A DNA stretch of 4,037 nt from positions 1 through 4,037 of the IMG/VR virus record IMGVR_UViG_2671180567_000004; one strand, 5' to 3'. Source of the stretch: a virus (Duplodnaviria > Heunggongvirae > Uroviricota > Caudoviricetes). Numbering within the stretch: the stretch's first letter is position 1; each line of letters begins with the position of its first letter. The position numbers were made by a program, and so were the translations under genes. The notes under the pieces were generated by a model. The model was not told the origin of the DNA. It saw only the letters and a program-made list of their open reading frames with translations, and searched no databases. Positions 1-4,037 of the stretch are shown one piece after another.

Positions 1-511
1 GTGAGGAGAAATAGGTGTTCTGCTTACCGTTATCCGTTGTCTGTGTACGGGGAGTTCTGGCTTTCGGTGCCAGCATCTGCGCCACACCACCCAGGATCAT
101 ACTGGCCCCTGCTGCATACATACCCGATACAGCCGCGGCCCCCAGCCAGCCCACAGGGTTCCACCATGCCACCGCAATCAGCGCCGCACCCAGCACTGCC
201 TGAAACACACCACCACTTTTGGCACCCACCAGGCGCGGCACGATGTGGATCACGGCACCATTTGCCAGCGGCTCATTAAGACGGGCAGATAATTCATTTT
301 CACCTGTATCACGCCCGGCAATGCGTACCTGATACCAGCCGTCGCTCAGCTTCTGACGAAACGCCGGGATCTGCATGGCCAGCGCCCGGATGGCTTCGGC
401 CCCCGTTTTTACACGAAGGTCGATGCGGCGGCCAAATCGTTGTAAATCCCCGTAAAGGCAGATGCGTGCCATGCCCGGTGACGCCAGAGGGAGTGTGTGC
501 GTCGCTGCCAT
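1..511 (-). CDS. I: tail assembly protein I (lambda gpI homolog), N-terminal ~170 codons; gene continues beyond the 5' edge of the window
   Basis: Not in the ORF track because no stop lies in the window. Hand translation of the reverse complement from ATG at 511..509 gives MAATHTLPLASPGMARICLYGDLQRFGRRIDLRVKTGAEAIRALAMQIPAFRQKLSDGWYQVRIAGRD...VIHIVPRLVGAKSGGVFQAVLGAALIAVAWWNP...ASMILGGVAQMLAPKARTPRTQTTDNGKQNTYFSS with no stop down to position 1. This matches my memory of lambda gpI, and the position after K fits lambda order. The start overlaps the 3' end of K by about 100 nt in another frame. Confidence 0.85.
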   Translation of the reverse strand, partial: MAATHTLPLASPGMARICLYGDLQRFGRRIDLRVKTGAEAIRALAMQIPAFRQKLSDGWYQVRIAGRDTGENELSARLNEPLANGAVIHIVPRLVGAKSGGVFQAVLGAALIAVAWWNPVGWLGAAAVSGMYAAGASMILGGVAQMLAPKARTPRTQTTDNGKQNTYFSS

Positions 512-1146
512 TTGTCGGTATACCTCTCTCGTTTGCTCAGTTGTTCAGGAATATGGTGCAGCAGCTCGCCGTCACCACAGTAAATGGCGGCATGATTCGG
601 CACCGATGAACCAAAACAGCACAGCAGCACATCGCCCGGTTGTGCTGATGACAACGGCACCTGATACAGCCCTGTGGCCTCCAGATTATCCAGATAGAGA
701 TTCTGACCGTGACGCCACCAGTCATCCCCGCGATGAAAATCCGGCATCTCAATCCCCGCCAGATGATAAGCATCCCGGAACAGCGTGTAACAGTCCGTCA
801 CCCCGTGCTCAAAGCGCCGCCCGGTGAGATGCGGCACACAGCGGAACTTATGAATCGCCCCCCGGCAGACCAGCCACCACGGCAAATCACTCTGCACCTG
901 CAGCCGCCGGTCGGCCTCACTCAGCCAGGGCAGACCACCGGGGTGGCTGTGGACCAGCGCCACAATCTCACCCTGCATTTCTGCCTGCAACCAGTCTTCC
1001 GGCAACATACGGAAATACGCCTCCGGCTCACCGGAGATATTCACGCAGGGGAAATATCTTTCCCCCTCCGGCGTGCTTACCACGAAGCCGCACGACTCCG
1101 CTGGCGCACATCGCCGGGCGTGCGCCAATATATTGCTATAGAGCAT
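409..1146 (-). CDS. K: tail tip assembly protein K (lambda gpK homolog); N-terminal MPN/JAMM-type domain plus C-terminal NlpC/P60-type domain
   Basis: ORF-track entry 409..1185 (258 aa) contains HSHPGGLPWLSEAD (JAMM-like H-x-H...S-x-x-D, His codon at 949..951) with an upstream glutamate, then a C-terminal Cys/His region (GVTDCYTLF, VPNHAAIY) typical of NlpC/P60 hydrolases. The protein matches my memory of lambda K. I place the start at the second in-frame ATG (1146..1144) because it is preceded by AGGAG (complement of 1152..1156) at 5-nt spacing, while the first ATG at 1185 has no Shine-Dalgarno and would put a terminator-like hairpin inside the coding sequence. Predicted 245 aa. Confidence 0.9.
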   Translation of the reverse strand: MLYSNILAHARRCAPAESCGFVVSTPEGERYFPCVNISGEPEAYFRMLPEDWLQAEMQGEIVALVHSHPGGLPWLSEADRRLQVQSDLPWWLVCRGAIHKFRCVPHLTGRRFEHGVTDCYTLFRDAYHLAGIEMPDFHRGDDWWRHGQNLYLDNLEATGLYQVPLSSAQPGDVLLCCFGSSVPNHAAIYCGDGELLHHIPEQLSKRERYTDKWQRRTHSLWRHRAWHASAFTGIYNDLAAASTFV

Positions 1147-1159
1147 GAGAACTCCTGAT

Positions 1160-1182
1160 AAAAAACCCAGCCGAAGCTGGGT
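1160..1182 (-). terminator. candidate intrinsic terminator on the minus strand between ant stop and K ribosome-binding site
   Basis: Minus-strand RNA would read ACCCAGC-UUCG-GCUGGGU (7-bp GC-rich stem, UUCG tetraloop) followed directly by UUUUUU, then the K Shine-Dalgarno AGGAG. Plus-strand coordinates: A-tract 1160..1165, stem arms 1165..1171 and 1176..1182. Confidence 0.55.
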
Positions 1183-1200
1183 CATTTCGTTGGCAATCTG

Positions 1201-2121
1201 TTAGTAGTGATGCAGTGAAGGAGGTAATTCTTTGTTCTTAAGTCTTACCCATGCAGAAAGATTCGTTGGTCCGTCTGGCTCATTAATATCAATATCTCGC
1301 GTGTGATTGATTAAAACGTCTCTCGCCATTCCGATAACATACGAGAACTCATGGCCGTAGTCGTAGCACCTGCCAGAATAGTTTGATTGAATTTGCTTTA
1401 GCGCCAGATACAGTTCGCGGAATAATGCCTGTGAGCGGTTGGCATAATCCCATAGCCATACAAGGCTGTTTGCTTCTTTTGCGGAAAGCTCGTTGGTGCT
1501 CTTCTCTTGTTTGCCGATTAACTCTCCTTCAAGCGGAACGCGAGCAGCAAGTGACAGAGCTTCGGTAAACTGCTCCTCGCTGATTTCTTTGTATGAACAC
1601 CCAAAATGAGATTTCAGTGACGACCACATGGTGATCATCGCCTTCGCCTGTTTTTCTTTTGGCAGAGACTGACCGCGACTCATGACGAGTTGTTTAATGG
1701 CTTCCTGCTGTTCAGTGGTGATTTTCCCCAGCAATGCCTTTTTAGCTTTGCGCGGGTTAATCACATGGCCTTTAGTCCAGTACTCGTAGAGCACATCGTC
1801 ACACTCTTCCTGATACTGGATTACCTTGTCGCGAATTTCAGGGCGGACTTTGTTAGGACTGATGGTTTGGAGCCAACCATTCAGTTTACGCAAAGCAAGG
1901 CAAATCATGGTCTGCATACCGCCAACTGAAGGTATTGCGATTTCCACAATACCTTTAGCAAATCTTTGTTTTAACTTTGTAAACTGTGAAGCCCAATCCA
2001 TACCCATTCCCTCAACGATAGGTTTCATTGGGGTGTACGGTTCGCCGTTGTGATTGACGACATAAAGCTCTGCGCCGTGGAATGGCACGTTGATAGTAGA
2101 TACCGCTGTTGCTATACTCAT
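1201..2121 (-). CDS. ant: phage antirepressor (Ant-like) protein, about 306 aa
   Basis: ORF-track entry 1201..2175 (324 aa from a GTG). I prefer the in-frame ATG at 2121..2119 because it is preceded by AAGGAA (complement of 2131..2136, 8-nt spacer) and the GTG at 2175 has no Shine-Dalgarno. The N-terminus MSIATAVSTINVPFHGAELYVVNHNGEPYTPMKPIVEGMGMDWASQFTKLK resembles phage antirepressor N-terminal domains (P22 Ant / Bro-N-like) from memory. Assignment is strengthened by the adjacent upstream Arc-like and divergent Mnt-like genes. Stop TAA at 1203..1201. Confidence 0.7.
   Translation of the reverse strand: MSIATAVSTINVPFHGAELYVVNHNGEPYTPMKPIVEGMGMDWASQFTKLKQRFAKGIVEIAIPSVGGMQTMICLALRKLNGWLQTISPNKVRPEIRDKVIQYQEECDDVLYEYWTKGHVINPRKAKKALLGKITTEQQEAIKQLVMSRGQSLPKEKQAKAMITMWSSLKSHFGCSYKEISEEQFTEALSLAARVPLEGELIGKQEKSTNELSAKEANSLVWLWDYANRSQALFRELYLALKQIQSNYSGRCYDYGHEFSYVIGMARDVLINHTRDIDINEPDGPTNLSAWVRLKNKELPPSLHHY
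2090..2118 (+). promoter_or_regulatory. candidate sigma70 promoter for an antisense (sar-like) RNA, inside the 5' end of ant
   Basis: Plus strand: -35 TTGATA (2090..2095), 17-bp spacer, extended -10 TGc TATACT (TG at 2110..2111, hexamer 2113..2118). Predicted start near 2125, reading antisense across the ant Shine-Dalgarno. Confidence 0.4.
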
Positions 2122-2124
2122 TTC

Positions 2125-2195
2125 GTTAGTTCCTTGGAAGTTACTGACATAGAAGCCCGATTTGTGTTCGCGCACTGTCGGGCTTCGCTATTTTT
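2125..2195 (+). ncRNA. candidate cis-antisense small RNA (sar-like, about 70 nt) complementary to the ant ribosome-binding site and arc-ant spacer
   Basis: Bounded by the candidate promoter at 2090..2118 and the plus-strand hairpin plus U-tract at 2152..2195. The transcript would contain UCCUUG, the complement of the ant Shine-Dalgarno. P22 immI is known to encode a short antisense RNA (sar) in the arc-ant spacer; this is an analogy, not a sequence match. Confidence 0.35.
2152..2195 (+). terminator. candidate unidirectional intrinsic terminator (plus strand) in the arc-ant spacer
   Basis: Inverted repeat GAAGCCCGA (2152..2160) / TCGGGCTTC (2178..2186) gives a 9-bp stem with a 17-nt loop that has an inner GTG/CAC pairing. 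On the plus strand it is followed by GCTATTTTTAT (T-run 2191..2195). On the minus strand no U-tract follows, so arc-to-ant read-through should not be stopped. Confidence 0.4.
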
Positions 2196-2361
2196 ATGTC
2201 CTAGCATTCTTCTCTCCAATCAGTCCGTACACTTTTCTCAATTGATAAATAAGTTCCGTGTTGAACTGTCGACACTCTTTTTCTCCATTTCTTTCAATCG
2301 CCTTCCTTACATCCTCTGGGAAACGAACCTTGCGTTGATACATGTCTTTTGCTTTTTCCAT
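2194..2361 (-). CDS. arc: Arc-like ribbon-helix-helix repressor, 55 aa (not in the ORF track)
   Basis: Hand translation of the minus strand from ATG 2361..2359 gives MEKAKDMYQRKVRFPEDVRKAIERNGEKECRQFNTELIYQLRKVYGLIGEKNART, stop TAA at 2196..2194. Strong Shine-Dalgarno AAGGAG with 5-nt spacer (complement of 2367..2372). The strand (KVRFPEDV), helix and N-cap (NTELIYQL) pattern closely resembles P22 Arc as I remember it (...NLRWPREV...NSEIYQRV...). It sits immediately upstream of ant on the same strand. Confidence 0.8.
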   Translation of the reverse strand: MEKAKDMYQRKVRFPEDVRKAIERNGEKECRQFNTELIYQLRKVYGLIGEKNART

Positions 2362-2399
2362 CTCCACTCCTTAAATAGCCTCACTATGGGGCAACCAAA

Positions 2400-2428
2400 A
2401 TTGTCACACCGTGCGTCATTGAAGTCAA
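2400..2428 (-). promoter_or_regulatory. candidate Pant-like sigma70 promoter driving arc-ant (minus strand)
   Basis: Minus strand reads TTGACT (complement of 2423..2428), 17-bp spacer, TGtGACAAT (extended -10; hexamer is complement of 2400..2405). Predicted start about 30 nt upstream of the arc ATG. The spacer contains CACCGTG (2407..2413). Confidence 0.45.
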
Positions 2429-2447
2429 CCCCACCGTGGGGCATAAT
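2419..2447 (+). promoter_or_regulatory. candidate Pmnt-like sigma70 promoter driving the Mnt-like gene (plus strand)
   Basis: Plus strand: -35 TTGAAG (2419..2424), 17-bp spacer, -10 CATAAT (2442..2447), about 37 bp before the ATG at 2485. Its -35 overlaps the -35 of the divergent minus-strand promoter back-to-back. The spacer contains the palindrome CCCCAC-C-GTGGGG (2429..2441). Confidence 0.5.
2429..2441. promoter_or_regulatory. candidate operator: 13-bp palindrome CCCCAC-C-GTGGGG
   Basis: Dyad symmetry (6-bp arms around a central C) between the two -35 elements and abutting the plus-strand -10. Its core CACCGTG recurs as a direct repeat at 2407..2413 inside the opposite promoter spacer. 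The size and symmetry suit a ribbon-helix-helix dimer or tetramer site. Confidence 0.45.
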
Positions 2448-2484
2448 TTACTTATTGTGAATTTTTCCTGTTTGGACTAATGGT

Positions 2485-2859
2485 ATGAGTAGAGAAGACC
2501 CTCAACTTCGGATTAGGCTTCCTGTTGAATTAAAAAAAATAATTGAAGCGTCATCAAAACAAAATAATCGTTCTATGAATGCTGAGATTGTCACTCTGCT
2601 TGAGTTGGCGATTCGTGTTTGTCGTGATTTTGGGCCGGAGGATGGTCCTATCGTTCAGCAGTTTAAAGAACAACTAGATGCGATAAACAGAAAATATGAT
2701 AAAAGCGAGCATGAAAAACTTATACCTCAACTTTTAGAAATCATAGAAAAACAGAAAAAACAAGTAGATAAACTTATTAGCATGGTTGAAAGATCAATTC
2801 CTCTTTCAGAGGAATATAAGCAGAAATATCTTGGTGATGACAACAAAAAACCCACCTGA
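2485..2859 (+). CDS. mnt: Mnt-like ribbon-helix-helix repressor with extended C-terminal helical region, 124 aa
   Basis: ORF-track entry 2485..2859. N-terminus MSREDPQLRIRLPVELKKIIEASSKQNNRSMNAEIVTLLELAI has the Arc/MetJ-type strand-helix-helix signature and resembles the P22 Mnt N-terminus as I remember it (RDDPHFNFRMP...NGRSMNSEL...). The C-terminal part (LIPQLLEIIEKQKKQVDKLISMVERS) is heptad-like and K/E-rich, consistent with an oligomerisation helix. It is divergent from arc-ant and convergent with L. Confidence 0.8.
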   Translation: MSREDPQLRIRLPVELKKIIEASSKQNNRSMNAEIVTLLELAIRVCRDFGPEDGPIVQQFKEQLDAINRKYDKSEHEKLIPQLLEIIEKQKKQVDKLISMVERSIPLSEEYKQKYLGDDNKKPT

Positions 2860-2866
2860 TGGTGGG
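2845..2866 (-). terminator. candidate intrinsic terminator on the minus strand just after the L stop codon
   Basis: Minus-strand RNA after the L stop (TAA, complement of 2876..2878) reads CCCACC-AUCA-GGUGGG followed directly by UUUUUU. Plus-strand coordinates: A-tract 2845..2850, stem arms 2851..2856 and 2861..2866. The hairpin overlaps the Mnt-like stop codon (TGA 2857..2859, in the loop). Confidence 0.5.
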
Positions 2867-2875
2867 CATAATCCA

Positions 2876-3574
2876 TTACTGCGAAAGTTTGTTAATGGAA
2901 AGGAAGCCGCCAAAGTTGCCGACGTTATTGCGAAACTTACAGCCACTCAGGCATTTGCTGCATTTATCCTTCGTGATATCGGACGTCGGCTGATCATATT
3001 CATCCGCGACTGCCGGACCGTGATAACCGCACTCATCACCGCGATAGGTCCAGGTGCAGGTGTTGGCCAGCATGATACGTCCCGGAAAAACAGCGCCGTC
3101 CGTTTCCGTCGGCGTGGACAGTACAAAAGAGGCACTCACCGCGCTCAGTTCGCTGCACTGCTCAATGCGCCAGCGGCTGATCACCTCCTGCTCCGGATCG
3201 GCGTCACTGTTTCCGTTGACGAAGTTCACCGCATCCAGAAAACGGGCGTAAACCTTACGCCGGACCACCGTTCCGCCGACCAGACTCTGCAGATCTTCCG
3301 CCATCCCGGTGACCATACCGTACAGGTTAGAAACCGTCAGCGTGGGGCGCGTACTGGTGCCTTTGCCATTCAGTTCAAAACCACTCCCCTGAATGGGATA
3401 CGGCTGATACTGTCGCCCCTGCCAGGTGACCGGCTCACCTTTTTCGTTCTGCTCATTACAGAAAAAATAACGTTCTCCACCGACCTCTGTCAGGTCGATT
3501 TCCCAGAGCACCACGCTGGCCGACTGCTCCGCACGGGTGCATTCATTCAGTGTTTCCTGCCGGATATCCTGCAT
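2876..3574 (-). CDS. L: minor tail protein L (lambda gpL homolog), 232 aa
   Basis: ORF-track protein MQDIRQETLNECTRAEQSASVVLWEIDLTEVGGERYFFCNEQNEKGEPVTWQGRQYQPYPIQ...CSKCLSGCKFRNNVGNFGGFLSINKLSQ matches lambda gpL almost along its whole length from memory. The start ATG overlaps the M stop (TGATG, 3576..3572). Four C-terminal cysteines are present. Confidence 0.95.
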   Translation of the reverse strand: MQDIRQETLNECTRAEQSASVVLWEIDLTEVGGERYFFCNEQNEKGEPVTWQGRQYQPYPIQGSGFELNGKGTSTRPTLTVSNLYGMVTGMAEDLQSLVGGTVVRRKVYARFLDAVNFVNGNSDADPEQEVISRWRIEQCSELSAVSASFVLSTPTETDGAVFPGRIMLANTCTWTYRGDECGYHGPAVADEYDQPTSDITKDKCSKCLSGCKFRNNVGNFGGFLSINKLSQ

Positions 3575-3903
3575 CAGTTCACCACCTGTTCAAACTCTGC
3601 GCTGAACTCAACACGCAGCATACTGACCCGCGACGACCATTTTGCGCAGGTCACCTTTATCTGCCGCCACTCATAAGGCGGCGTCCACAGAAAGGCTTTC
3701 CAGCCCCCGTGCTCTTCCAGAAACGACTCCAGTACCGTGGCCTCCTCACGGGGGACAGAAAGCGTCACGCTGTACGTTTTCAGGTTGGCATTCAGCCCGG
3801 CAGGCGCTCGCTGGGAATAGCCATCACCAAAGCGCACCTTTCTTACAGAAGGGGCCGAAGCCACATCCATACCGGGTTTCACTTTCCAGCGGAAGGTTTT
3901 CAT
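3574..3903 (-). CDS. M: minor tail protein M (lambda gpM homolog), 109 aa
   Basis: ORF-track protein MKTFRWKVKPGMDVASAPSVRKVRFGDGYSQRAPAGLNANLKTYSVTLSVPREEATVLESFLEEHGGWKAFLWTPPYEWRQIKVTCAKWSSRVSMLRVEFSAEFEQVVN is near-identical to lambda gpM from memory. The start overlaps the H stop (ATGA). Confidence 0.95.
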   Translation of the reverse strand: MKTFRWKVKPGMDVASAPSVRKVRFGDGYSQRAPAGLNANLKTYSVTLSVPREEATVLESFLEEHGGWKAFLWTPPYEWRQIKVTCAKWSSRVSMLRVEFSAEFEQVVN

Positions 3904-4037
3904 CGTCCACCTCCGGAGAACAGGCCACCATCACGCATCTGTGCCTGAATCTCATCCTGCGCCCCCTTGCGGGCCATGTCATACACCGCCTTCATCAGCT
4001 GCGGCCCCGCCTGTCCGTTGGTGCCGTCGTTCTGAAT
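3900..4037 (-). CDS. H: tail tape-measure protein H (lambda gpH homolog), C-terminal 45 codons; gene continues beyond the 3' edge of the window
   Basis: Hand translation of the reverse complement of 3903..4037 gives IQNDGTNGQAGPQLMKAVYDMARKGAQDEIQAQMRDGGLFSGGGR, stop TGA at 3902..3900 overlapping the M start. Assigned as H from its position immediately upstream of M and its resemblance to the lambda gpH C-terminus as I remember it. Confidence 0.8.
   Translation of the reverse strand: MQNDGTNGQAGPQLMKAVYDMARKGAQDEIQAQMRDGGLFSGGGR

Follow-up and report, generated by a model that had tools for sequence, protein, structure and literature searches.

The window, by which we mean the whole analysed stretch of 4,037 nucleotides from a caudate virus, carries part of a lambda-like tail operon on the minus strand, with the genes L and K of that operon held apart by a regulatory cassette. 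The flanking genes are the following:

1–472, minus strand: 5' part of the tail assembly gene I, an open frame truncated by the window edge, with an overlap into the end of K (gene call in source locus L011, 100% identical, matching Pfam Lambda_tail_I)
409–1146, minus strand: tail tip gene K, 245 aa, 58.7% GC (Pfam Prok-JAB and NLPC_P60, i.e. JAB/MPN and NlpC/P60 domains; PHROG minor tail protein, E = 1e-160)
2876–3574, minus strand: minor tail gene L, 232 aa, 55.5% GC (Pfam Phage_tail_L, E = 5e-101; 97.2% identical to phage mEp332 from 2876 onward)
3574–3903, minus strand: minor tail gene M, 109 aa, 56.4% GC (Pfam Phage_min_tail)
3900–4037, minus strand: 3' end of the tape-measure gene H (gene call in L011 and annotation of related loci)

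The start ATG of K at 1146 and the stop codon of L at 2876–2878, both on the minus strand, lie where a sequence-only reading of this DNA had placed them. The segment between them harbors the following genes and predicted control elements:

1160–1183, minus strand: intrinsic terminator downstream of ant, GACCCAGC-TTCG-GCTGGGTT plus a T run (terminator scan; fold z = -3.55)
1201–2121, minus strand: ant, P22-type antirepressor, 306 aa, 45.8% GC (Pfam P22_AR_N, 152.5 bits against a cut-off of 30.7; P22_AR_C, 97.4 bits against 22.4; both cut-offs exceeded)
2090–2118, plus strand: promoter-like site for a sar-like RNA, TTGATA, 17 nt, TATACT, with a TG, within the first ant codons (10 of 12 positions match, the best of the region)
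2125–2197, plus strand: probable antisense RNA of the sar type, with a pair of hairpins and complementarity to the ribosome-binding region of ant (ends inferred)
2194–2361, minus strand: Arc-like ribbon-helix-helix protein, 55 aa, whose gene opens the ant operon (Arc-like repressor in PHROG, E = 5.5e-6; position of P22 arc)
2379–2391, no strand: operator-like site A, CCTCACTATGGGG, a degenerate copy of site B (direct repeat D12), from about +3 to +15 relative to the predicted start of ant promoter transcription
2400–2428, minus strand: predicted ant promoter serving arc and ant, TTGACT, 17 nt, TG-n-GACAAT (promoter scan)
2419–2447, plus strand: predicted mnt-like promoter, TTGAAG, 17 nt, CATAAT (promoter scan; kept in diverged homologues)
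2429–2441, no strand: operator-like site B, CCCCAC-C-GTGGGG, perfectly palindromic, located within the mnt-like promoter spacer and adjoining the ant promoter -35 (repeat D12)
2485–2859, plus strand: Mnt-like repressor, 124 aa, 35.5% GC, GC3 0.26, with a ribbon-helix-helix at the N terminus and a longer, helical C-terminal portion, divergently transcribed as in P22

Sequence searches recovered P22 Ant as a clear relative of the largest product of the cassette (BLASTP, 56% identity over 309 columns, E = 1e-117), with the C-terminal third reaching about 90% identity as read from the printed alignment. Hence, by its sequence the protein belongs to the P22 Ant antirepressor family; a PDB sequence search with it returned no match, and thus no solved structure of a relative. 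At the DNA level, ant is 89–94% identical to its counterparts in CUS-3, in a Salmonella phage and in Stx phages. The terminator that follows it is near-identical in P22 and CUS-3 and homologous to the annotated P22 ant terminator, and in the CUS-3 record it falls inside a region annotated as 'bsq1; boundary sequence'.

The Mnt-like protein matches the Pfam Arc model above its cut-off (30.6 against 20.4 bits), aligns with residues 1–43 of P22 Mnt (33% identity, E = 2e-10), and retrieves the PDB entry 1mnt (E = 0.0015). In its C-terminal two thirds BLASTP detected no similarity to P22 Mnt beyond residue 43, nor was a Mnt-type coiled-coil tetramerisation domain recovered there; the last 80 residues gave weak matches to designed helical proteins only. 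A helical oligomerisation role for this part is possible. The Arc-like protein falls slightly short of the same Pfam cut-off (19.1 against 20.4 bits) and shows 33% identity to P22 Arc (E = 2e-5), and a PDB sequence search with it found designed proteins only; its length and its place in the cassette agree with an Arc-type gene. In RefSeq this open reading frame is labeled hypothetical.

The predicted ant and mnt-like promoters stand back to back with overlapping -35 hexamers, and the ant promoter block is nearly invariant across the window, TL-2011b and two Klebsiella loci. The centres of the operator-like sites A and B are 50 bp apart. Site B is conserved in the Klebsiella loci and almost so in TL-2011b, where the equivalent of site A is the perfect CCCCACGGTGGGG; within site A, position 2386 is an A in the source of the window and a G in 10 other loci. 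On the opposite side of arc, the -10 element TATACT of the sar-like promoter aligns with the sar promoter annotated in P22. The RNA predicted to start there folds at -28.9 kcal/mol (z = -4.1) into the two-hairpin shape of P22 sar, and in an RNAalifold consensus of nine cassettes, P22 included, 9 of the 19 pairs show compensatory (double) changes. In a short-range scan the Rfam sar model RF00262 matched over its full length (model positions 1–68) and at the orthologous place, with a score of 15.6 bits (E = 1) that misses the gathering score of 43 and with P22 itself, as positive control, scoring 97.8 bits; a scan of the whole window with Rfam gave no match at E <= 1.

The sequence-only reading had singled out the segment by its base composition, and the step that it described is real: positions 1147–2875 have 43.0% GC, against 59.1% in the left flank (1–1146), 56.6% in the right flank (2876–4037) and 57.8% in the two combined (two-proportion test, z = -9.35, p = 8e-21). 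Non-overlapping bins of 100 nt range from 0.28 to 0.51 GC in the cassette and from 0.48 to 0.68 outside it (Mann-Whitney p = 4e-7), and the two AT-rich runs that had been quoted are present, TTAAAAAAAATAATTG at 2530–2545 and CAGAAAAAACAAG at 2752–2764. Codons of the AAA, GAA and ATT types are enriched as claimed (72 against 22, 54 against 27, and 35 against 15 per 1000 codons in the cassette and in K+L+M, respectively), but as a sign of distinct codon usage this excess mostly dissolves, because the cassette proteins are richer in K+E+I+N residues (30.7% against 17.1% in the tail genes), and the AAA/AAG and ATT/ATC ratios show no difference. Codon usage was compared by GC3 and by synonymous chi-square tests. 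Overall synonymous usage does differ between the cassette and the tail genes (chi-square 141, 41 df, p = 6e-13), and GC3 is 0.49 in ant, 0.41 in arc and 0.26 in the mnt-like gene, against 0.65–0.67 in K, L and M.

The proposed sharpness of the step is borne out on the K side, where GC drops from 59% to 42% over 100 nt, but the L side is blurred. The last 128 nt of L (2876–3003) are native L sequence with 44.5% GC, and a maximum-likelihood fit with two changepoints returns 1127–3003 as the low-GC segment; composition alone thus misplaces the L-side boundary, because the native 3' end of L is equally GC-poor. Measured against the surrounding prophage genes, as that reading had suggested, the result is mixed: the cassette lies outside the range of the neighboring structural genes (0.53–0.59 GC) but inside that of the whole prophage, as taken from a relative that matches most of the window at 98% identity. 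In this relative, 14.6% of 1729-nt windows have a GC fraction of 0.43 or less, with cI (0.456), cro (0.425) and int (0.426) among the low-GC genes, and all structural genes other than those for the distal tail fibres are at or above 0.506. As 43% GC falls within the whole-prophage range, composition alone is not diagnostic. Sampled host genes have a mean GC of 0.518, with the tail genes of the window above and the cassette below this value, and the corresponding regions of P22-like phages are close to the cassette (P22 immI 44.2%, CUS-3 ant 44.4%).

That the cassette was horizontally acquired is nevertheless supported, mainly by comparative evidence rather than by composition. Related phages such as mEp332 have an empty arrangement, in which the L stop is followed by 5 nt and then by the K start, and the homology of mEp332 to the window breaks off at 2876 on the L side and at 1125 on the K side. 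The joints themselves are marked by two features:

1126–1159, minus strand: K-side joint, with a new 5' end of K and its own Shine-Dalgarno sequence AGGAG, encoding MLYSNIL in place of the lambda-type MTQTESAIL (junction comparison; mEp332 homology ends at 1125)
2845–2875, minus strand: L-side boundary sequence, a terminator-like hairpin GCCCACC-ATCA-GGTGGGT followed by a T run (terminator scan; fold z = -2.19)

As the first codons of K were replaced, the swapped segment extends to 1126 and is best delimited by this comparison as 1126–2875 rather than 1147–2875; the new K start (1126–1146) has 28.6% GC. The hairpin 3' of L on the tail-gene strand shows a marginal excess of stability, with 9 of 200 shuffles folding equally well, and the same 31 bp also encode the C-terminal KKPT of the Mnt-like protein together with its stop codon. 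Identical 31 bp adjoin L in cassettes with different regulators. The L-side boundary hairpin and 1160–1181 form a direct repeat of 82% identity; we considered the two similar end hairpins as a target-site duplication and rejected this, as empty sites contain no copy of the hairpin.

The slot between L and K holds different cassettes in different loci, and all cassette types share both ends. Among E. coli genomes, the empty L-K junction occurs in 8455 places and the K-side end of the cassette in 645, a roughly 13-fold difference. The arc and mnt-like segments are 100% identical among prophages that show differences of 1–16% in L, M and K, and of the ten loci shown with an identical Mnt-like protein, nine carry the cassette in a lambda-like tail region, flanked by L and K, and one is a degraded prophage. 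Of 5426 complete E. coli genomes, only 2 contain the regulatory half (2122–2844), and a contig scan did not find the operator region in species-representative genomes. Our literature searches found no published description of an antirepressor slot between L and K, with the 'ant moron' of P22-like late operons as the only relevant concept (PMC2629481).

The gene order, the absence from syntenic relatives, and the predicted promoters and terminators of its own mark the segment as a putative immI-type module. Hence, we posit that 1126–2875 is, very probably, an 'ant moron' of the P22 immI type, a self-contained secondary-immunity module gained from phage to phage by recombination and now lodged between L and K in a lambda-like tail operon. 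This has to be set against the converse polarity, in which the cassette is ancestral to this lineage of tail genes, the empty junctions are deletions, and the low GC reflects functional constraint on lysine/glutamate-rich regulators and AT-rich promoters rather than foreign origin. The part played by amino-acid composition in the AAA/GAA/ATT excess and the GC-poor native end of L would sit well with such a polarity, and the two ends common to all cassette types would fit a single old event. However, the empty junctions possess a complete alternative K start (MTQTESAIL) 5 nt past the L stop, which a deletion would have had to recreate exactly, and they far outnumber the K-side ends of cassettes. 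Moreover, the differences in GC3 (0.26–0.49 against 0.65–0.67) and in synonymous usage are not explained by amino-acid content, and ant with its terminator is common to podophages that lack L and K genes altogether, with ant 89–94% identical. We therefore regard an ancestral cassette as highly improbable.

A shade less credible still is a source in the bacterial chromosome or in a mobile element other than a phage (a plasmid or a transposon, for example), in the manner of classical host-derived morons. While ant homologues do occur in some plasmid records, and the GC of the cassette is below that of the sampled host genes, those plasmid matches are phage-like replicons or megabase-sized records with adjoining phage genes, and all homologous contexts that we examined are phage or prophage. 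The nearest DNA relatives are the immI regions of P22-like phages, and no transposase, integrase or terminal inverted repeats were found in the window at the flanks of the segment. The donor was another phage and not the bacterial host. Least probable of all, to the point of being scarcely tenable, is that the composition step is noise or ordinary variation from gene to gene: the proportion of equally GC-poor windows in the relative prophage could be cited in its favor, but this is countered by the z-score against the flanks, by the floor of 0.506 GC in the structural genes of that relative (distal tail fibres apart), and by the K-side changepoint at 1127, which is no more than 2 nt away from the junction located by comparison (1125/1126).

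On the preferred reading of an immI-type module received from another phage, the GC drop would mark the seam of two histories, that of the lambda-type structural genes (55–59% GC) and that of an immI module (43%, with P22-like immI at 44%). The insertion would have broken the tight coupling of L and K, and K would now initiate from a new start codon served by a new Shine-Dalgarno sequence. The composition step, the empty sites, the gene homologies, the architecture, and the conservation of promoter, operator and hairpin elements are observations; how the cassette might operate, with all binding and regulatory steps, is carried over from P22 by homology. In a lysogen, the Mnt-like repressor would bind the CCCCAC-N-GTGGGG palindromes around the ant promoter and keep it closed. 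Upon infection or loss of this repressor, the promoter would fire to produce the Arc-like protein and Ant; the latter would bind and inactivate CI/C2-type prophage repressors without cleavage, and the former would then close the promoter again. The sar-like RNA would pair with the ribosome-binding region of ant to limit its translation. The ant terminator and the hairpin after L would halt ordinary transcription on the tail strand and so keep transcripts from the ant promoter out of K, I and J, and Q-modified late transcription would be expected to pass both. A control logic different from that of P22 can also be conceived, wherein a single longer Mnt-like repressor bridges the two palindrome copies 50 bp apart astride the ant promoter, and the G-to-A change at 2386 weakens the operator over the transcription start, resulting in leaky Ant and readier induction or cross-induction of co-resident prophages. 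We consider this unlikely.

The importance of the locus beyond annotation is small, as the cassette represents a common, already annotated kind of phage mosaicism and not a new system. Nevertheless, it illustrates that a P22-type secondary-immunity module moves between the late operons of podoviruses and siphoviruses, that its landing site is a recurrent slot with conserved hairpin sequences at its bounds, and that it rebuilds the beginning of the tail gene downstream. As antirepressors are able to cross-induce other prophages of the same cell, among them Stx phages with related cassettes in the L-K slot, knowing the regulatory allele of a prophage could help predict its induction behavior. 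More generally, a step in GC within a lambdoid prophage points well to a seam between modules, but is neither a proof of foreign origin nor an accurate marker of the boundary.

The closest parallel in architecture is the immI region of P22, where the components have the same order and orientation as in the cassette: first the divergent ribbon-helix-helix repressor, then promoters and operators, the small Arc-type gene, the antisense RNA that covers the ribosome-binding site of ant, ant itself, and its terminator. Each module sits in a late structural operon, in which ant reads in the direction of the late genes, and they resemble each other in GC content (44.2% in P22, 43.0% here), in the near-identical ant terminator, and in the 56% identity of Ant. 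They differ in their setting: the neighbors of P22 immI are gene 16/sieA and the tailspike gene of a podovirus operon, whereas those of the present cassette are L and K in the tail operon of a lambda-type siphovirus. P22 Mnt has 83 aa against the 124 aa of the Mnt-like protein, whose C-terminal part is unrelated, and the Arc-like protein is only 33% identical to P22 Arc. The two P22 promoters overlap almost entirely, whereas the predicted pair is back to back; P22 has distinct Oarc and Omnt operators, in contrast to a single 13-bp palindrome that is present here twice at a spacing of 50 bp; and its sar scores 97.8 bits against 15.6 bits here, which is below the Rfam threshold.

In terms of location, the nearest equivalents are the cassettes of long-tailed Stx phages (2851, 1717, YYZ-2008 and the Stx2a_WGPS series) and of other E. 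coli prophages, which have the same L-K slot, both boundary sequences and the replaced K start. These cassettes encode an ant that is about 89–90% identical, and GenBank and RefSeq label their genes 'anti-repressor Ant' and 'Arc-like repressor', but they have no detectable DNA similarity to positions 2122–2844 of the window, which comprise sar, arc, the promoters and the mnt-like gene. Other occupants of the slot include a LexA-family regulator in EC12 and other genes in PhiR12_1. Finally, the trans-acting, LexA-controlled antirepressors of the Gifsy prophages (PMC3121763) are alike in concept, as judged by their description, in being encoded outside the main immunity region and in inactivating prophage repressors without cleavage; they differ in being under the control of the host LexA, whereas the control here would be exerted by phage-encoded ribbon-helix-helix repressors.

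We identify the AT-rich segment between the lambda-type tail genes L and K as an acquired cassette of mnt-like, arc-like and ant genes. Its presumed horizontal origin is supported by empty junctions, breaks in homology, alternative occupants of the same slot and an ant gene shared with podophages. In phage mEp332 and many others, homology to the window extends as far as 2876 on the L side and picks up again within K, at 1125. The empty junction reads L-TAA, ATCCC, ATG-K, with K beginning MTQTESAILAHARR, whereas in the window and every cassette-bearing locus K begins MLYSNILAHARR after its own AGGAG. These breaks, together with the changed K start, define an exchanged segment of 1126-2875 that replaces 32 bp. 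Hence, of the limits that the sequence-only reading had set at the L stop and the K start, the former stands (2875/2876), but the latter moves into K, where the composition changepoint (1127) agrees with the comparative limit. Of 5426 complete E. coli genomes, 4221 have the empty junction (8455 places), 463 the K-side end of the cassette (645 places) and only two its regulatory half. The window itself is 100% identical to CP057188.1.

Features of the window (coordinates, strand, description)
1-472, minus: tail gene I, 5' part, lambda-type
409-1146, minus: tail gene K, lambda-type
1160-1183, minus: intrinsic terminator 3' of ant, nearly base-for-base the annotated P22 ant terminator
1201-2121, minus: ant, 306 aa (Pfam P22_AR_N and P22_AR_C)
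2090-2118, plus: sar-like promoter (TTGATA, 17 nt, TATACT), opposite ant, in its first codons
2194-2361, minus: Arc-like ORF, 55 aa, upstream of ant (PHROG, P22 Arc similarity)
2379-2391: operator-like site A, degenerate copy of the site B palindrome, at about +3 to +15 of the predicted ant promoter
2428-2400, minus: predicted ant promoter (TTGACT, 17 nt, TG-n-GACAAT)
2419-2447, plus: predicted mnt-like promoter (TTGAAG, 17 nt, CATAAT)
2429-2441: operator-like site B, perfect palindrome CCCCAC-C-GTGGGG
2485-2859, plus: divergent gene for the Mnt-like protein, 124 aa (Pfam Arc, P22 Mnt, PDB 1mnt)
2850-2867, tail-gene strand: second terminator-like hairpin, directly after the L stop
2876-3574, minus: tail gene L, lambda-type
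3574-3903, minus: tail gene M, lambda-type
3900-4037, minus: tail gene H, 3' end, lambda-type

That the cassette is ancestral, with the empty junctions arising from later deletions, is unlikely, as each deletion would need to rebuild a whole alternative start for K, 5 nt past L, and ant with its terminator is also found in phages lacking both genes. An origin in the host or on a plasmid is likewise unlikely: all contexts examined are phages or prophages, and neither a transposase gene nor terminal inverted repeats were found flanking the segment. Instead, the donor was a phage. Identity of the ant DNA is 89-94% with two phages, the P22-like podophage CUS-3 and a Salmonella phage, and further podophage-sized phages match part of the gene at about 88%; the GC of the P22 immI region (44.2%) and of CUS-3 ant (44.4%) is essentially that of the cassette.

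Chance is excluded as the source of the composition step. The reported GC drop is real, with 43.0% in 1147-2875 against 59.1% in 1-1146 and 56.6% in 2876-4037 (cassette versus flanks, z = -9.35, p = 8e-21); non-overlapping 100-nt bins span 0.28-0.51 in the cassette and 0.48-0.68 outside. Both A-rich runs quoted as examples are present (2530-2545 and 2752-2764). The change is sharp, as claimed, on the K side (59% to 42% within 100 nt) but not on the L side, where GC is 44.5% over the last 128 nt of L (2876-3003) and the segment spans 1127-3003 in a likelihood changepoint fit. This stretch is native, L being 97.2% identical to that of the empty-site phage mEp332 from 2876 onward; thus, segmentation by composition only overshoots the cassette by about 130 nt. 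AAA, GAA and ATT are indeed two to three times as frequent per 1000 codons in the cassette as in the tail genes, but mainly because Lys, Glu, Ile and Asn make up 30.7% of the residues in its proteins, versus 17.1% in those of the tail genes. Overall synonymous usage does differ from that of the tail genes (chi-square 141, 41 df, p = 6e-13), and GC3 is 0.49, 0.41 and 0.26 in the three cassette genes and 0.67, 0.65 and 0.655 in K, L and M.

Whole-prophage GC was measured on the closest complete relative, a prophage of E. coli CFSAN018748 that shares 97.9% identity with the window over 313-4031. Its GC is 0.53-0.59 in the structural genes (Z to J) and 0.31-0.53 in the early, immunity and accessory genes (cI 0.456, cro 0.425, int 0.426); across 51 kb the mean is 0.500, with 14.6% of 1729-nt windows at or below 0.43. 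Sampled host genes average 0.518, and tail genes lie higher. Cassette GC thus falls outside the range of the neighbouring genes, as the sequence-only reading requires, but not of the whole prophage: the segment is foreign to its immediate neighbours, yet typical of the lambdoid regulatory half. Composition is therefore a pointer and not proof, and it is the comparative data that carry the case for acquisition. Besides its L-K cassette, this prophage bears two more antirepressor-like genes in the nin region (L008, 11814-13294), one with a KilAC domain and one with a P22AR C-terminal domain.

The L-K slot is a hotspot. In Stx phage 2851 it holds an ant in common with the window but a different arc and upstream region, in E. 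coli EC12 a LexA-family regulator and in PhiR12_1 other genes; all three cassettes share with the window both the 31 bp that border L and the end next to K. Seven other prophages with diverged tail genes (L 91.6-99.3%, M region 84-96%, I/K region 94-96% identity) match the arc/sar and mnt-like segments at 100%, which indicates that prophages have recently exchanged the module. In a large collection, 612 blocks are indexed for the identical Mnt-like protein; of the ten loci shown, nine place the cassette in a lambda-like tail, between L and K, and one is a degraded prophage. In one assembly (L012, 1-12375) the cassette lies in a degraded prophage where lysis genes replace L on one side, and I is followed by a Cu/Zn superoxide dismutase gene and then NleG-type effector genes. 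In another locus (L015, 7424-12375) the identical regulatory module adjoins a different tail module, with an HK97-type tape measure gene and other tail chaperone genes, which shows recombination of the cassette or its flanks between distinct siphovirus tails.

The ant product matches P22_AR_N and P22_AR_C far over the Pfam threshold and is 56% identical to P22 Ant, the C-terminal third being nearly identical as read from the alignment. The Arc-like ORF is 33% identical to P22 Arc, with a PHROG Arc-like match (E = 5.5e-6) and a Pfam Arc score of 19.1 bits against a cut-off of 20.4. Residues 1-43 of the Mnt-like protein form a ribbon-helix-helix domain related to P22 Mnt (E = 2e-10), which also matches PDB 1mnt and Pfam Arc (30.6 bits).

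Between the arc and mnt-like genes, the -35 hexamers of the two promoter-like sites overlap; site B lies inside the plus-strand promoter spacer and adjoins the minus-strand -35. Promoter blocks and palindromes are kept in phage TL-2011b and two Klebsiella records (74-79% identical aligned DNA), and in TL-2011b the counterpart of site A is a perfect palindrome. Position 2386, adjoining the centre of site A (CCTCACT[G>A]TGGGG) over the predicted ant promoter start, is A in the window and CP057188.1 and G in 10 other loci with the same module, the A taking the site further from a perfect palindrome. A third CAC-N-GTG core (CACCGTG, 2407-2413) lies in the fully conserved ant-promoter spacer, between the two 13-bp palindromes.

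No other promoter match in the region is as good as the sar-like one, whose -10 lines up with the P22 sar promoter as annotated. Its predicted RNA (about 2125-2197, plus) folds into two hairpins, as in P22 sar, and a consensus of nine cassettes including P22 retains both and shows compensatory changes in 9 of the 19 pairs. Given 15.6 bits with the Rfam sar model, against 97.8 for P22, we term it a diverged sar-like RNA rather than a certified family member.

The ant terminator falls in the 'boundary sequence' label of the CUS-3 record. The hairpin at 2850-2867, embedded in the final codons of the mnt-like gene, folds only marginally better than shuffles (z = -2.19). The end hairpins are 82% identical direct repeats (1160-1181, AAAAAACCCAGCCGAAGCTGGG; 2845-2866, AAAAAACCCACCTGATGGTGGG); target duplication is ruled out as their source by empty sites without a copy, and they may reflect a recombination 'boundary sequence' or convergence. 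Different divergent regulators read into the same L-side hairpin (2845-2859 in the window; also L002, L006 and L007): Mnt-like in the window, LexA-family in EC12, Arc-family in strain A1 and an unannotated frame in phage 2851. They share the final residues ...KKPT, with the stop codon in the hairpin loop.

By homology with P22, the Mnt-like protein would repress the ant promoter through the palindromes in the lysogen, and infection or loss of this repressor would release a burst of Arc-like protein and Ant, the latter inactivating CI/C2-type repressors. The Arc-like protein and sar-like RNA would then limit Ant synthesis, while the terminator after ant would keep ant-promoter transcripts from K, I and J and let Q-modified late transcription pass. 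The cassette has the same layout as P22 immI, named the 'ant moron' in P22-like phages (Villafane and colleagues, PMC2629481), and each sits within a late operon, with ant transcribed in the same direction as the late genes. It adds a new allele to a well-known class of modules, and the slot it occupies has annotations in many genomes already.
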